Notes under the pieces: generated by a model
Databases searched by the model: none
The model's input: only the letters and a program-made list of their open reading frames with translations
What the model was told of the DNA's origin: nothing
Shown: piece after piece, positions 9,811-33,222 of the stretch
How the letters are laid out: each line of letters starts with the position of its first letter
Numbering within the stretch: the first letter of the stretch is position 1
Assembly (NCBI GenBank): GCA_043810355.1
Contig: JBDROB010000047.1
Coordinates: 1 to 58,848 of the forward strand
Source of the DNA: Candidatus Woesearchaeota archaeon
Lineage (GTDB): Archaea; Nanobdellota; Nanobdellia; Woesearchaeales; JAGVYU01
Length of the DNA: 58,848 nt
Direction: 5' to 3'
Made by a program: the position numbers and the translations under genes

Positions 9811-10841
9811 GTTAAATACCCCGAGCCGAACGAGCGAAGCATAGTGAGGTGAGAGTGCAACGTGGTCGAGTACCGCAGTTCACAAAGTGAACGAGGAACG
9901 GAGAAGTAAAATTCTTACTTTATCAATCCTGCGAAGCAGACTATATTTAGGGGGTTTCCGTTTATCAAGGGCGTAAGCCAATTTAAGTGAATGGGTTAAG
10001 GGGAAAATCTTTTCTGAGTTAGATTTGAGTAAAGTTTATATTACTAATTATATTCCCAAAAATAATGACTAACAATGTAAATGAAGCTGCATCAAGGATG
10101 GAGCAATTGATAAACTCATTTGAGATTGTTCCAATAAAGCCTTTAGCAGGTAAGGCAATAAAAGTTCCTTCTGATGATCCATGTATATTAGGTAAAGGTG
10201 ATTCTTCTGTGATATTCCGGTTAGGCGAATTTACTGACGGGGATTATTTATGTGGCAAACTTTATGGTGCCAGGTCTCCAAGATATTCCTCTGGCATTTG
10301 GGAAATGGGGTTTTTATATATCTCAGGTTATATTATTTGTGGTTATGATAAGGGCTTAGATAATAATATTGATGTTTTAAGTAGGGTCGGTTTACAAGTG
10401 CCCCCTCACCATCAATTTAAGGCTGAAACCCATGGTGGAAAATTTACCCCCCATTATATAATCGTAGAAGATTTTACTCAAGGAGGCAGATATAATGTTG
10501 TTGATGCTGTTGATTTTGATTTCAATTCAATTCCAAATGGTGTTTCATTAGAAAAGGCATATCGGAAGACATTGTCAAGAACTTTAAGACGTTTGAGGTC
10601 AAAAAAGTATGTATTGCATTGTCATGGCCATGTTAGTGAAGCAGAGGGAGGGATTGACAATGCAATTGAGCATTTGTTTTTTGTTCAGCATAGGCAAAAT
10701 GGAGAAGGAAGATTAATTGTAGGGGATCTTGATCATATTGAAGCAAGGTATGTTCCATTTAGTGAAAGATTGCCAAAATGGATTCAGAATTTTCCCATTA
10801 TCTCTAATTTAGGAAACCCCCGTTCTAAGTAAGAATTTTAT
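9811..10841. other. module 4 of the inverted-repeat-bracketed gene array
   Basis: GTTAAAT box at 9811-9817. GC box GTGCAACGTGGTCGAG at 9855-9870. Outer arms 9906-9918 GTAAAATTCTTAC / 10829-10841 GTAAGAATTTTAT. Inner arms 9950-9959 GGGGGTTTCC / 10812-10821 GGAAACCCCC. Cargo is ORF 10065..10832 (plus strand). Confidence 0.8.
10065..10832 (+). CDS. hypothetical protein (module 4 cargo)
   Basis: ORF track, no confident motif. Confidence 0.55.
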   Translation: MTNNVNEAASRMEQLINSFEIVPIKPLAGKAIKVPSDDPCILGKGDSSVIFRLGEFTDGDYLCGKLYGARSPRYSSGIWEMGFLYISGYIICGYDKGLDNNIDVLSRVGLQVPPHHQFKAETHGGKFTPHYIIVEDFTQGGRYNVVDAVDFDFNSIPNGVSLEKAYRKTLSRTLRRLRSKKYVLHCHGHVSEAEGGIDNAIEHLFFVQHRQNGEGRLIVGDLDHIEARYVPFSERLPKWIQNFPIISNLGNPRSK

Positions 10842-10855
10842 TGTATTTAATCCTT

Positions 10856-11943
10856 GTTAAGTTCTTTTCCCATACGAAGTGTGGGAAAACTGCGTCCGCA
10901 GAGTTGAGAATTTGTCTTTTTTCAAGCACGGAGTGCCATCAAAATAATTCATCCAGGGGCTTTGGTCGTTATTACATTATACACTAAATAGTGGTAACAA
11001 ATAGAAACATTTATAAAGAAAATGTATTCAATCTTTATTATGTTGGAGCAAATTACGTATCAGAATAATCAAGAATTACAGGATGCACAATTAACTACAA
11101 TAGTTAATGTTGCAAGTGAAATTTACCAATCAAATGGAAATAAACCTATTAGAATTCTTGATTTAGCAACAGGTCCAAATGGATTTAATCCAGTTATTGT
11201 AAGAAATTTAATTGATAGAGGCATCGATTATGAATTGGTTTTATCAGACATTTCTCCAACACATTTCAGAATTGGATATGAAAATCTTGAACAAGAATTA
11301 TCTCCTGAAGAACTTCAAAAAGTAAAATGCGTACTAGCAGATTCTAGAGATTTTAAAAGAAATCTTACTGAAGTTCCATTATGGGGTGAAGGTAGAAAAC
11401 CGCTTGAAGAAGTTCTTGAAGATCCAAGATACCAATTTTTACAAACAGGTTATCAAGATGGTCAAAGAACAGTAGATTTTACTGATGGTGCTTTTGATTT
11501 GGTTATTGGAAATATTCCTTATGGAAGTATAAATACAGGAGATTATTCGGATGCAATAGATGAGTCTGCAAGAGTTTTGAAACCTAGTGGATATCATATT
11601 GTTGATGAAATGCATGTTGAAAATGTGCAGAGTTATGGATTGCGAGCTTGGTGTACCTTAAAAGAAATGTTTGGAAAACCATTAAGAGAAGCTTATCCAA
11701 CTGCAAGAAGAAGCTTATCGGCAATTTCTAGAGCAAGAGCAAAAGATCTTCAAGAAGTCTCATCTAAATTGGATTCAGTATTAACACCTGTTGCTGTTTA
11801 TTCAACAACTTACGTATATGATACAGAAGAACGAATTCCTGAACAAACTCTCCAAAAAGGAGATTTAGTAAAAAGAGCTGTATTTGTACATCAGAAAGTT
11901 GATTAAGCCCAAAGCCCCCTTCTACTAAAAGACAAATTCTCAA
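10856..11943. other. module 5 of the inverted-repeat-bracketed gene array
   Basis: GTTAAGT box at 10856-10862. Outer arms 10904-10920 TTGAGAATTTGTCTTTT / 11927-11943 AAAAGACAAATTCTCAA (17/17). Inner arms 10954-10965 CAGGGGCTTTGG / 11909-11920 CCAAAGCCCCCT. Cargo is the methyltransferase gene (plus strand). Confidence 0.8.
11022..11906 (+). CDS. class I SAM-dependent methyltransferase with NPPY-like motif (possible N6-amino methyltransferase)
   Basis: ILDLATGPNG (motif I) and DLVIGNIPYG (motif IV-like). Confidence 0.65.
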   Translation: MYSIFIMLEQITYQNNQELQDAQLTTIVNVASEIYQSNGNKPIRILDLATGPNGFNPVIVRNLIDRGIDYELVLSDISPTHFRIGYENLEQELSPEELQKVKCVLADSRDFKRNLTEVPLWGEGRKPLEEVLEDPRYQFLQTGYQDGQRTVDFTDGAFDLVIGNIPYGSINTGDYSDAIDESARVLKPSGYHIVDEMHVENVQSYGLRAWCTLKEMFGKPLREAYPTARRSLSAISRARAKDLQEVSSKLDSVLTPVAVYSTTYVYDTEERIPEQTLQKGDLVKRAVFVHQKVD

Positions 11944-12018: not shown

Positions 12019-12063
12019 TCAAATCTGAAAAAGTGGTGTAACTTATGAGTGAACTTGGATAAC

Positions 12064-12118
12064 AAAAACCGCACTAATCCCCTACTTGAAGGTAGGGGTA
12101 TTTTATCATGCGGTTTTT
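12064..12118. repeat. closed hairpin element
   Basis: AAAAACCGCA / TGCGGTTTTT (10 bp) enclosing CCCCTAC/GTAGGGG. Confidence 0.7.
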
Positions 12119-12122
12119 GGGA

Positions 12123-30986: not shown

Positions 30987-31892
30987 ATGCTGAAACAAGG
31001 TGAGATTGTGAGTCATGATATGAGTCATGGAAATGGATTGGCTCATTTTATTCCAGAACCTTTGATTGAAAAAGGTTACAAGATAAAGCCAAGGCATCTT
31101 GGTGAGCTGATGAAATATGGCAGAGGCCCTTATACAATGATCGTAAAGAAGAATTGCGGTTTTGAAAACCTTCCTCTCACAGATGTGTATGAGGGTGCAG
31201 AGCATTTACCTGATGATCTTTCAAAGAAACTGCCTAATCTGACTTTATTGAACCATTTGAGTGACGGCAATTCTTTTTTTGTCTATGGATGCACTATGGG
31301 CCATACTCATCCTGACAATGGATTGAGTGCCCAGGAAGTGTATGAGTTTTTTGGATATGGCGCAATGCTTCTGGCTTCAAGGGATGATGCAGAGCATAAA
31401 TATGTCCAGCTTCATGTTGCAAGACCAGGTAGTAAGGTGATTGTTCCTGGCAACTGCATCATGACCCTCTATAATTTGAACATGAGTGATGGCAAGCCAA
31501 TGCCATTATTGACAGCTGACATGGCTAATCCTTGGAACAATATGAGTGACAAGGATGTTATTGAGGAAAAAGGTGCCATGATGGTTATGTATGCAGCAGA
31601 TGGATCATTCGGCCCTCACATTGTGCCAAATGGCAGTTACAGCCATTTTGTCCTTCCATATCCATGCTCTTTTGGCATTAAGGCAGACCAGGGTGAAGGA
31701 AGTGCAATTGTTCAGGCTATTCTGGATAAGAGAGACATGTTGAGAAAGCATAATATTGAGGTCATTGAGGCAAGAGAAGATCCTGTATGTATAGGAGTTG
31801 ACGGCCAGACCTACAAACTCGACAGACCTTTGGATGAACTGGTGAATGATCCAGACAAGCCTGTCCATAGATTGTTGGGAATGGTTGATTAA
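30987..31892 (+). CDS. cupin-fold protein resembling archaeal cupin-type phosphoglucose isomerase
   Basis: TMGHTHPDNGLSAQEVYEF His/Glu cupin motif. ATG 30987 lies just after the upstream stop. Confidence 0.5.
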   Translation: MLKQGEIVSHDMSHGNGLAHFIPEPLIEKGYKIKPRHLGELMKYGRGPYTMIVKKNCGFENLPLTDVYEGAEHLPDDLSKKLPNLTLLNHLSDGNSFFVYGCTMGHTHPDNGLSAQEVYEFFGYGAMLLASRDDAEHKYVQLHVARPGSKVIVPGNCIMTLYNLNMSDGKPMPLLTADMANPWNNMSDKDVIEEKGAMMVMYAADGSFGPHIVPNGSYSHFVLPYPCSFGIKADQGEGSAIVQAILDKRDMLRKHNIEVIEAREDPVCIGVDGQTYKLDRPLDELVNDPDKPVHRLLGMVD

Positions 31893-31954
31893 ACCCATTT
31901 TTTCTTTTTCTTACCCAAAACTTTAAAAACAATTTCTCATCATCATACAAATAT

Positions 31955-31978
31955 GCCTCTGTAGCTTAGCCAGTAATG
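31955..31978 (+). other. orphan duplicate of a tRNA 5' end (acceptor strand plus D-arm start)
   Basis: GCCTCTGTAGCTTAGCCAGTAATG compared with GCCCCTGTAGCATAGCAGCTATTG at 32689. The shared upstream TACAAAT is also duplicated. Confidence 0.6.
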
Positions 31979-32056
31979 TTTTTCTAATACATTAATTGAA
32001 AAATTTCCGATTTTATTGACGATAAACATATTAAGGAGATATTATTATTTATTCAA

Positions 32057-32698
32057 ATGTTAAAAAACATTAAATTAAATGAAGAAATTTGTGAATTTAT
32101 TGGAGCTTTCATTGGTGATGGTTATATGGGAAATTATGGAAAACATAAAAGTCAATATTTAATAGGAATCGCAGGTGATAAAAAACTTGATTTAGATTAT
32201 TTCAAGAATTATTTAAAACCTTTGATTAAAAGAAATTTTCCTTTTACAAATCCAAAAATATATTTTAAAAAGAATGAAAACTCAATTATGTTAACAATTT
32301 ATTCTAAGGAATTATATCATATTTTTTTAGAGTTAGGATTTAACACTGGGAAAAAATCAAGAGTTGTTAAAATCCCCCATCAAATTCTGAAAAATGACTT
32401 ATTCATGAAATCTGCAATTAGAGGAATTTTTGATACTGATGGATGTTTGTATTTTGATAAAAGAAAACCTTATTTAAAACCATATCCAAGAATTACCTTA
32501 CAAATTGCAAGCCAGAAACTATTAAAACAATTAGAGAAGTTTTTATCAAATCATTTTAATTTATACCTAAATTATAATAATAGAAATGGATATAGAAACT
32601 ATATAGAGATTTATGGACATGACCAATTAGAAAAGTTTTTAAAATTGATAAGTTTTTCTAATAAAAGGCACTTAATCAAATTACAAATGCCCCTGTAG
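32057..32698 (+). CDS. LAGLIDADG-family homing endonuclease-like protein
   Basis: Two dodecapeptide-like motifs, FIGAFIGDGY and IRGIFDTDGC. The stop codon lies inside the tRNA-like 5' end. Confidence 0.85.
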   Translation: MLKNIKLNEEICEFIGAFIGDGYMGNYGKHKSQYLIGIAGDKKLDLDYFKNYLKPLIKRNFPFTNPKIYFKKNENSIMLTIYSKELYHIFLELGFNTGKKSRVVKIPHQILKNDLFMKSAIRGIFDTDGCLYFDKRKPYLKPYPRITLQIASQKLLKQLEKFLSNHFNLYLNYNNRNGYRNYIEIYGHDQLEKFLKLISFSNKRHLIKLQMPL

Positions 32699-32808
32699 CA
32701 TAGCAGCTATTGCGTTTGTGATAAAGTGTGCACTTTATTTCCGCAAAACCTTGGTACTATTAATTACCAGTAAGGTAAAGGTCGTGAGTGCAAATCTCAC
32801 CAGGGGCT
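32689..32808 (+). tRNA. tRNA-like gene with about 45 nt of extra internal sequence; anticodon not resolved by eye
   Basis: 7/7 acceptor stem GCCCCTG/CAGGGGC. D-arm GCAT..TTGC. AGGTC variable loop. T-arm GTGAG-TGCAAAT-CTCAC (atypical G at loop position 2). T-run afterwards. Confidence 0.45.
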
Positions 32809-33222
32809 TTTTCTATTTTTAATTATTTCTTATGACTATACTCAACTAATGATACAGGATCTGATTTAACCATAACAGTATAATGTTAACCATCTGTTCC
32901 TTCTACTTTTCCTTGACCTGTAAAATATTGGCCAACATATATTCTTTGGCCTCTCTTATGGACAAATTTTTTTGACATCAGTGTTTTCCAATACCCTCGA
33001 ACTGGATGAGCAGGTCTAGGTGATTTTGATTTTTTTATTTTTTTATATCATCAATAAATATAAACCTAAAAGAATAGTCTATCAACATAATAAAATGTAT
33101 AATAAGATGGTTAGTAAGATTATAATTAGATGATTAGTAAAATTATAATAAAATAATGAGTAAAAAATAGGAAATATAATAGAAAATAAAATAATTAATA
33201 AAAAAAAGAATCAAGAAAGAAA

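Follow-up and report, generated by a model that had tools for sequence, protein, structure and literature searches.

A free-standing LAGLIDADG endonuclease cassette that likely replaced a tRNA-Thr(GGU) gene in a Woesearchaeota archaeon

Contig JBDROB010000047.1 of a Candidatus Woesearchaeota archaeon (GCA_043810355.1; 58,848 nt, referred to below in its entirety as the window) carries a LAGLIDADG endonuclease gene between a short fragment of a transfer RNA (tRNA) gene and a complete tRNA gene that repeats this fragment. This raises the question of how an endonuclease gene came to lie within a tRNA locus, and from where the complete tRNA gene was derived. The original prediction was that the gene had been inserted into a tRNA gene and had left an orphan 5′ fragment, and this was borne out by an empty allele in a related genome, by the Pfam match and predicted fold of the protein, and by analysis of the tRNA. 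We consider it likely that a free-standing LAGLIDADG cassette, which targets tRNA-Thr genes and supplies a replacement tRNA, invaded the single-locus tRNA-Thr(GGU) of this member of the Woesearchaeota (DPANN archaea). The resident gene is broken between tRNA positions 21 and 22, with its promoter and first 21 nt stranded at 31921–31975. Because a complete cargo tRNA follows the endonuclease gene, the cell keeps a functional tRNA. The locus belongs to a large and apparently undescribed family of tRNA-Thr-replacing homing-endonuclease cassettes.

The empty allele, locus L088, lies on a contig of a Woesearchaeota metagenome-assembled genome and was reached through a 96%-identical homologue of the L15e protein encoded downstream of the insert. 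By blastn, L088 and the window were 89% identical over the radical-SAM gene and the gene of a 311-aa protein upstream, 92% over 31890–31975 (intergenic DNA and the left repeat copy), and 94% over the L15e gene; the 311-aa protein had no match in an exact look-up and a metagenome scan. At the orthologous site, L088 carries an intact, endonuclease-free tRNA-Thr(GGU) (10774–10901, minus strand; Rfam 41.8 bits), which provided the comparison with an uninterrupted allele that the original prediction had called for. The first 21 nt of this tRNA, GCCTCTGTAGCTTAGCCAGTA, are identical to window positions 31955–31975 (21/21), and an identical copy of the TATA-like box CTTTAAAAAC precedes it at equal spacing, which identifies the left copy as the 5′ end of the resident gene, left stranded. 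Identity ends exactly after tRNA position 21, where L088 continues with GAGCGTTACCTTGGTA and the window with ATGTTTTTC (the L088-type sequence across the 21/22 junction being GTAGCTTAGCCAGTA followed by GAGCGTTACCTTGGTA), which places the break at the boundary of D-loop and D-stem. An early alignment that had extended the left copy to approximately position 35, into an intron, was discarded because the homology to L088 stops at position 21.

Nothing in L088 corresponds to window positions 31976–33220, and no endonuclease was found in L088 (tblastn best E = 1.1). This stretch, approximately 1.25 kb following tRNA position 21, has a G+C content of 0.25 vs. 0.39–0.42 for the flanking genes (23.7% in the endonuclease open reading frame, ORF). 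The missing counterpart and the low G+C content together indicate that the DNA after position 21 is an insertion, present in the window and absent from L088 between flanks that are 89–94% identical. The tRNA now present in the window differs from the L088 resident in its D-arm (GCAT AGCAGCTA TTGC vs. GCTT AGCCAGTA GAGC), in acceptor pair 4:69 (C:G vs. U:A), and in its introns, which lie at 28/29 and 37/38 vs. 37/38 and 59/60 in the resident. Additionally, stacked palindromic hairpins that resemble a miniature inverted-repeat transposable element occupy approximately 210 nt of L088 (10967–11176, minus strand), after the upstream gene and before the tRNA promoter; they are absent from that site in the window, and part of them matches window positions 12059–12122 at 86%.

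The original prediction had described the two tRNA 5′ ends as direct repeats that include seven nucleotides of upstream flank, TACAAAT. The repeat itself stands on its identity to L088, while the flank was probably not duplicated, as the L088 leader reads CATATTAATAT there; its match to the C-terminal codons of the endonuclease may be fortuitous or stem from local conversion. The left TACAAAT begins at 31946 and not at 31947 as had been given, and the TATA-like box that had been placed about 25 nt upstream of the left copy ends 24 nt before it. The fragment spans the acceptor strand, the 5′ strand of the D-stem and the D-loop, and nhmmer matched it to profile positions 1–21. Left copy GCCTCTGTAGCTTAGCCAG (31955–31973) and right copy GCCCCTGTAGCATAGCAG (32689–32706) differ by three substitutions and one indel over 19–21 nt, with different D-loops.

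The right copy was correctly foreseen to continue into a full tRNA. The unspliced gene scored 38.9 bits against Rfam RF00005 in a local permissive scan, with a long insertion in the anticodon region, and once both introns were removed in silico, ARAGORN called a 73-nt tRNA-Thr(GGT). The three exons (32689–32716, 32748–32756 and 32773–32808) supply positions 1–28, 29–37 and 38–73, respectively, the acceptor stem pairs perfectly (GCCCCTG/CAGGGGC), and the discriminator is U73. Among the tRNAs beside homologous ORFs in L001, L002, L006 and L007, pairs 27:43, 28:42 and 29:41 covary while the UUGGUAA loop is constant, indicating that the gene is a two-intron tRNA-Thr(GGU). Both introns, drawn by hand, fit the bulge-helix-bulge (BHB) rule of a 4-bp helix with 3-nt bulges on either side and cleavage after the second bulge nucleotide, albeit with weak outer or inner helices (relaxed motif). 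For intron 1 the central helix pairs UGCG (23–26) with CGCA, with bulges UU/U and AA/A (slash, cleavage site). This pairing of tRNA positions 23–26 with intron CGCN is accompanied by covariation of position 23 with intron nucleotide −3 in 21/21 endonuclease loci (A:T 8, T:A 9, T:G 2, G:T 1). For intron 2 the helix pairs UUGG (32–35) with CCAG, with bulges UA/C and UA/A; L001, without this intron, reads CCTTGGTAAGG uninterrupted.

No tRNA was called in the 58.8-kb window by ARAGORN, or by Rfam at gathering or whole-window settings, and multi-intron tRNAs in such genomes are likely missed systematically by routine annotation. The elbow is unusual in both the cargo and the L088 resident: the T-loop is UGCAAAU, with G replacing the universal U55, and the D-loop (AGCAGCUA or AGCCAGUA) is without the G18-G19 pair. 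The same elbow was seen in many other Woesearchaeota cargo tRNAs (L002, L006, L008–L011, L014, L016, L017). A T-loop intron (at approximately 59/60) was found in some cargos (L021, L061, L075) and in the L088 resident (10787–10817, minus strand), and the intron positions of tRNA-Thr in these archaea comprise the D-loop, 28/29, 37/38 and the T-loop.

The product of the 642-nt ORF matched PF14528 (LAGLIDADG_3; E = 1.2e-8, above the curated cut-off) and has two LAGLIDADG motifs, FIGAFIGDG (D21) and IRGIFDTDG (D128), as in monomeric enzymes. In a family alignment of 27 sequences both catalytic Asp residues were invariant, and the window protein retained all 29 invariant columns. Its AlphaFold2 model (predicted local distance difference test score 92.6; predicted template modelling score 0.90) shows the pseudo-dimeric alpha-beta-beta-alpha-beta-beta-alpha fold, and Foldseek matched it with probability 1.0 to I-Tsp061I, I-DmoI, I-AniI, I-SceI and intein endonuclease domains, with template modelling scores of approximately 0.65–0.77 to I-DmoI, I-Tsp061I and the intein domains; bI3 maturase and WhiA were also in the Foldseek list. 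Likeness at the level of sequence was weak (2dch, TliVMA intein). Judged from the Pfam match, the retained Asp residues and invariant columns, and the modelled similarity to I-DmoI and I-Tsp061I, the enzyme looks active. A permissive Rfam scan of 31850–32900 (E up to 10) returned the tRNA and two weak chance matches and no group I ribozyme core, and an origin of the gene as a group I intron-encoded endonuclease was thus rejected.

The ORF and the tRNA overlap (Table 1). As had been predicted, the ORF stops within the tRNA 5′ end: its final codons, ATG CCC CTG TAG, cover tRNA positions −2 to 10, with TAG (32696–32698) at positions 8–10. The position of the stop calls for no particular cause, U8-A9-G10 being read as TAG in this frame; the ORFs of relatives that have G9 or use a different frame continue to offsets of −14 to −38. 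The TATA-like CTAATAAAAG lies at −31 to −22 from tRNA position 1, within codons of the conserved FSNKR motif, and A/T-rich FSN codons were located by hand 24–32 nt before the tRNA start in eight loci (the window, L001, L002, L006, L007, L030, L040, L043). The leader opens with a hairpin (TAATGT/ACATTA) and has AAGGAG at 32033–32038. Within 31976–33220 the LAGLIDADG gene is the only ORF of at least 60 aa. It is uncertain whether the tail after the cargo tRNA is part of the insert. Neither tail nor leader had a homologue in any other fetched locus, and no second border repeat was found downstream, the repeats that flank the ORF differing as described above. Similarity of the trailer to L088, considered as a sign of resident DNA, was not significant (341/2000 shuffles reached its score). 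In the tail, at 33086–33163, a 23-nt AT-rich unit (AAATGTATAATAAGATGGTTAGT-like) is repeated imperfectly in three tandem copies.

Table 1. Positions of the features of the tRNA-Thr(GGU) locus in the window.
Feature	Position	Strand	Basis or remark
TATA-like box CTTTAAAAAC of resident tRNA-Thr	31921–31930	+	Ends 24 nt before tRNA position 1; putative promoter, from sequence
Orphan 5′ fragment, positions 1–21 of resident tRNA-Thr(GGU)	31955–31975	+	L088 identity, nhmmer, shuffle test
AT-rich leader of insert, 81 nt	31976–32056	+	G+C content 18.5%; no L088 counterpart
LAGLIDADG endonuclease ORF, 642 nt, 213 aa	32057–32698	+	PF14528, fold model, family alignment
TATA-like CTAATAAAAG inside ORF	32658–32667	+	Candidate internal promoter of cargo tRNA
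Complete cargo tRNA-Thr(GGU), two introns	32689–32808	+	Rfam RF00005, ARAGORN on spliced sequence
Intron 1, 31 nt, non-canonical, 28/29	32717–32747	+	Hand-derived BHB matches cloverleaf splice sites
Intron 2, 16 nt, canonical, 37/38	32757–32772	+	Rfam and spliced ARAGORN call
AT-rich tail, cargo tRNA to L15e gene, 412 nt	32809–33220	.	G+C content 24%; no L088 counterpart (blastn)

The arrangement in the window is not a singleton. Homologues of the endonuclease formed 289 protein clusters, and 353 relatives were found in species-representative genomes, the best 80 of which came nearly all from Woese-, Pace-, Nano-, Iain-, Micr- and Aenigmatarchaeota. When 83 distinct homologous loci, nearly all from DPANN archaea, were scanned with a tRNA-Thr profile, the endonuclease adjoined a tRNA-Thr gene in 83/83. 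The tRNA-Thr match touched or overlapped the 3′ end of the ORF in 74 (50 on the same strand, 24 on the opposite one) and lay within 450 nt of it in seven; weaker but visible fragments were found in the remaining two. The genes flanking the insert in the window were common to none of the loci fetched through the endonuclease (L001–L087), indicating that the endonuclease follows the tRNA and not the neighbourhood. The arrangement had been called unusual, which holds against the literature, but within this family it is the rule. The gene lies outside any intron or intein and beside its target, as a free-standing cassette does, and co-inheritance with the tRNA is suggested by the cargo itself: the cargo-type D-arm and the introns travel with the endonuclease clade, 16/19 cargos in the clade of the window having the 28/29 intron and others a D-loop intron (21/22; L001, L015, L087).

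Four layouts recur: a 5′ remnant, the endonuclease and a full tRNA-Thr(GGU), as in the window; the same with a 3′ remnant directly after the full tRNA; a full tRNA-Thr(CGU) preceded by a 5′ remnant and a promoter-like TTTATAAA and followed by a longer ORF and a 3′ remnant; and a mirrored form in which the tRNA lies on the opposite strand. In the clade of the window, left remnants like its own recur in five further loci and end at position 21 or 22 (the window, L008, L010, L014, L019) or 28 (L002). In L040, L043, L029 and L086, 5′ and 3′ remnants flank the endonuclease together with a complete tRNA, and the acceptor halves of these two remnants are complementary to one another (GCCTCTA/TAGAGGC, GCTCAGA/TCTGGGC, GCCTCTG/CAGAGGC and GCCTCCG/CGGAGGC) and not to the enclosed tRNA. 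The anticodon region is missing from these remnants, which in L040, L043 and L029 are without positions 16–35. A resident gene was therefore split there and lost a part, and the insert contains a different tRNA-Thr. Truncated or partial endonuclease copies were found in L019, L021, L022 and L075; such decay is expected of selfish genes after fixation and is typical of homing endonuclease genes. The same ORF also occurs without the duplicated 5′ end (L001, L006, L007 and others). This had been named beforehand as a possible refutation, and it does not refute the insertion, because those loci carry other remnants or none.

Several further observations concern the borders and contents of these cassettes. 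L002 and L004, from different samples, have an identical endonuclease and cargo tRNA and diverge completely after the tRNA 3′ end (3241 onward), with a DNA methylase in one neighbourhood and a CBS-domain gene in the other, which marks the tRNA 3′ end as a second breakpoint of recombination. A conserved CACTGGACA, followed 20–25 nt later by TATTTAAAC and then by (G)GTGATTTAAAATG as Shine-Dalgarno/start context, lies approximately 60–100 nt before the ATG in L002, L006, L008, L009, L011, L012, L014–L016 and L026, and the whole is probably the family's own promoter and leader. The CACTGGACA...TATTTAAAC block precedes most related ORFs and was not found in the leader of the window; the left copy was also considered as a homologue of CACTGGACA, which was rejected since L088 identifies it as resident tRNA. 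The tRNA-Thr(CGU) cargos form a subfamily (L063, L064, L068, L076, L079, L081–L083, L085, L086) in which the cargo, with a TTTATAAA promoter-like box of its own, lies approximately 400 nt before the endonuclease homology and is followed by a longer ORF, and a resident 3′ remnant (positions ~44–73) abuts the stop codon of the ORF. Many relatives (P0091–P0120; L029, L040 and L043 at ~1600–2000) have 325–340 aa, with an N-terminal extension of approximately 120 aa before the LAGLIDADG core, and L029 has an additional ORF of approximately 100 aa between cargo tRNA and 3′ remnant. Three members (L007, GCA_043812595.1; L024; L037) lie on contigs binned as Patescibacteria, Falkowbacteria or 'bacterium' next to tRNA-Thr genes of archaeal style (introns, U73), which could reflect mis-binning or cross-domain transfer. 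A metagenome pattern scan with CCGCNAANCCTTGGTA gave 119 loci, 117 of which were chance matches; L144 and L186 were real.

The repeated tRNA segment could have arisen in other ways. The left copy might be an accidental match within AT-rich intergenic DNA, for which its shortness and its three differences and indel relative to the right copy speak; the probability of this is practically nil, and the comparison with L088, in which 21/21 nucleotides and the promoter box agree with an orthologous intact tRNA, refutes it. Gapped local alignment of the right copy with the 750 nt upstream of the ORF also gave z = 5.8, a score that 0/200 shuffles reached, a profile of 16 intron-less tRNA-Thr genes placed the left copy as second-best match on both strands of the whole window, and the feature recurs in L002, L008, L010, L014 and L019. 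The original prediction had left room for a free-standing gene or a giant intron, and the former is what the locus supports. Introns are the classical home of archaeal LAGLIDADG genes, the host tRNA is rich in them and the left copy keeps a promoter, all of which would suit a left copy that acts as first exon to a BHB intron of approximately 734 nt (or as a trans-spliced leader) with the endonuclease encoded in between. We nevertheless give this very little credence and rejected it. By hand, no BHB could be drawn at 21/22, where exon CCAG would need CUGG before the 3′ bulge and the sequence is CAGC, and none pairs 31975/31976 with 32709/32710; the left D-stem strand GCTT cannot pair with the downstream TTGC, while GCAT of the right copy can; the right copy by itself yields a complete tRNA, the acceptor stem of which pairs perfectly; the surroundings hold no group I intron signal; and the remnants in L040, L043 and L029, being without the anticodon, cannot make a tRNA.

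Direct repeats of a tRNA segment around an ORF are also what integrase-, transposon- or Campbell-type recombination would leave, with a small circular or transposable element that carried a tRNA 5′ segment, recombined with the resident gene and thereby duplicated that segment, and a LAGLIDADG protein that is a passenger or has another role. A locus of the same layout in Caldiarchaeum was interpreted in this way (PMC3293823), and in L008 and L019 the left and right copies are nearly identical, as they would be if one crossover had duplicated the segment. We consider such an origin unlikely, if conceivable for the window alone, since no integrase or transposase domain lies between the repeats, where the LAGLIDADG gene is the sole ORF; a single crossover cannot yield loci such as L040, L043 and L029, which lost the middle of the resident gene and have remnants on both sides; and the left copy in the window differs in type from the right (three substitutions, one indel, the D-loop). 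The strict linkage to tRNA-Thr across many DPANN lineages, together with bI3 maturase and WhiA in the Foldseek list, would also agree with a domesticated tRNA-Thr factor (maturase-like, WhiA-like DNA-binding, or acting in processing) that is held by selection, the fragments being incidental. This appears quite improbable: the gene is absent from the close relative L088, which has a good tRNA-Thr at the same site, has a low G+C content and a different genomic context in every genome, occurs in degenerate copies and has invariant catalytic Asp residues, and disrupted resident genes surround it.

For a free-standing homing cassette, the following sequence of events is proposed. The endonuclease would cut tRNA-Thr alleles that have no endonuclease gene, within the D-arm/anticodon-stem region, and the cassette would be installed when the break is repaired by recombination with a copy that carries it. 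The conserved tRNA would provide both the target and short homology arms, and since site and arms are conserved between species, a tRNA would be an ideal target. The cargo would escape cutting through its differing D-arm and its 28/29 intron, which interrupts a presumed 20-bp site; the L088 resident is uninterrupted near the 21/22 junction. Both cargo intron positions are within approximately 10 bp of the junction, and self-immunity of the cargo through its introns is an idea that we put forward tentatively. The stranded resident promoter would transcribe the endonuclease mRNA, for which it is the obvious driver given that the leader in the window is without the family promoter block. The cargo tRNA could be made from the TATA-like box CTAATAAAAG in the last codons of the ORF or, alternatively, by RNase P and tRNase Z processing of a read-through transcript. 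Because the RNase P cut of such a transcript would remove the stop codon of the ORF, endonuclease translation and tRNA maturation would be mutually exclusive for each RNA molecule.

Several observations weigh against this reading or parts of it. With regard to immunity by intron, the endonuclease-free tRNA-Thr of L144 also has a 28/29 intron and the cargos of L011 and L087 are without one, and with regard to the D-arm, the remnants in L008, L010 and L019 already have that of the cargo type. Left and right remnants mismatch each other in L014, L083 and L085, indicating more complex histories. The comparison with L088 gives no border on the right side of the insert: between tRNA and L15e gene, L088 has 4.2 kb of other genes, and the window has the 412-nt AT-rich tail. 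The T-arm in the window (GTGAG TGCAAAT CTCAC) is that of the L088 resident, so that a crossover inside the tRNA is possible, and the tRNA could equally be a hybrid, its 5′ part derived from the cassette, its 3′ part from the resident and an A69G change acquired later, or a wholly imported gene. The leader without a promoter-like block fits use of the resident promoter and is no proof of it, and cleavage, homing and transcription of the cassette are all deduced from sequence comparison.

Among published cases, the tRNA-Thr(GGU) locus of Caldiarchaeum subterraneum comes closest: a 5′ fragment (positions 1–27) with its native flank lies upstream, and a 1.87-kb insertion contains one ORF that directly precedes, in the same orientation, a reconstituted tRNA-Thr(GGU) with an extra non-canonical 24/25 intron (Sugahara et al., 2012, PLoS One; PMC3293823). 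An empty allele occurs in the same population, another copy lies beside tRNA-Thr(CGU), and the genome has six to seven repeats of the element, which was compared with pNOB8-type plasmids; ORF 'b' (813 bp) was assigned by SVMProt as a putative recombinase, and LAGLIDADG or homing is not mentioned (PMC3293823). The two systems share the tRNA species, the 5′ fragment, an ORF with a reconstituted, intron-gaining tRNA, and an empty allele. They differ in that the ORF described here is demonstrably of the LAGLIDADG type, with apparently one copy per locus, in DPANN archaea, whereas Caldiarchaeum belongs to the Aigarchaeota and its ORF 'b' could be compared by description only. The nearest functional analogue among free-standing enzymes adjoining tRNA genes (intronless homing) is SegB of phage T4, a GIY-YIG enzyme encoded in the phage tRNA cluster that cuts the tRNA region of an endonuclease-less genome, with co-conversion of flanking tRNA (PMC2330249). 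SegB involves no disruption of a resident tRNA, no remnants and no dedicated cargo, while the cassettes described here are LAGLIDADG-encoding, reside in archaeal chromosomes and are linked one-to-one with tRNA-Thr.

In fold and in monomeric two-motif architecture, the window protein resembles I-DmoI and I-Tsp061I, which are encoded in rRNA BHB introns, and intein domains, and presumably shares their mechanism of a double-strand break in the empty allele that is repaired from the occupied one. Those enzymes target rRNA or protein-coding genes, the function of which returns with splicing of the RNA or protein; the enzyme described here is encoded by a free-standing gene, its target is a tRNA gene, and the loss of the resident is made good in the DNA itself by a replacement tRNA. 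In a survey of archaeal group I introns, 39/39 were in rRNA genes. SSV1- and pNOB8-type elements likewise land in tRNA genes, bring part of the tRNA along, so that a working gene is retained, and leave a partial direct repeat. They encode a tyrosine-recombinase integrase, use attachment sites usually at the 3′ half of the tRNA and measure many kilobases, unlike the present cassettes, which are without integrase, have a unit of approximately 0.8–1.25 kb and a junction in the D-arm. Free-standing homing endonuclease genes of fungal mitochondria enter the ends of genes and bring a replacement segment, and the displaced segment becomes a pseudogene. The logic is alike, in that a substitute piece travels and the resident piece is stranded, and the differences lie in protein-coding targets, in-frame fusions and residence in organelles. 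No description of LAGLIDADG–tRNA-Thr cassettes in DPANN archaea was found in full-text literature searches.

The origin of non-canonical introns, splits and scattered fragments of archaeal tRNA genes is a long-standing question, for which there was so far one population-level example (Caldiarchaeum), with a gene product that had been guessed. Across hundreds of DPANN genomes, an identifiable enzyme family, LAGLIDADG, is now found to be linked with this same tRNA species, with empty and occupied alleles and with resident genes seen partway through splitting and replacement, and such cassettes may explain both intron gain and leftover fragments in tRNA genes. Replacement accounts for the different tRNA-Thr intron sets of two orthologous loci with approximately 90% identical flanks. 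One small protein and two short DNA substrates would suffice to test directly whether introns are gained through replacement of alleles and whether they protect against homing endonucleases. The family is also a possible source of tRNA-gene-specific meganucleases, and it carries a warning for annotation, since standard tools miss multi-intron tRNAs. It is conceivable, although we regard this as speculative, that homing cassettes are a general engine of archaeal tRNA gene disruption, importing non-canonical introns and stranding fragments, and that introns at 28/29 or 21/22, within the cassette's own recognition site, confer self-immunity. If true, this would give non-canonical tRNA introns a concrete selective origin and would directly support the old idea that the breaking up of tRNA genes protects them against mobile elements.

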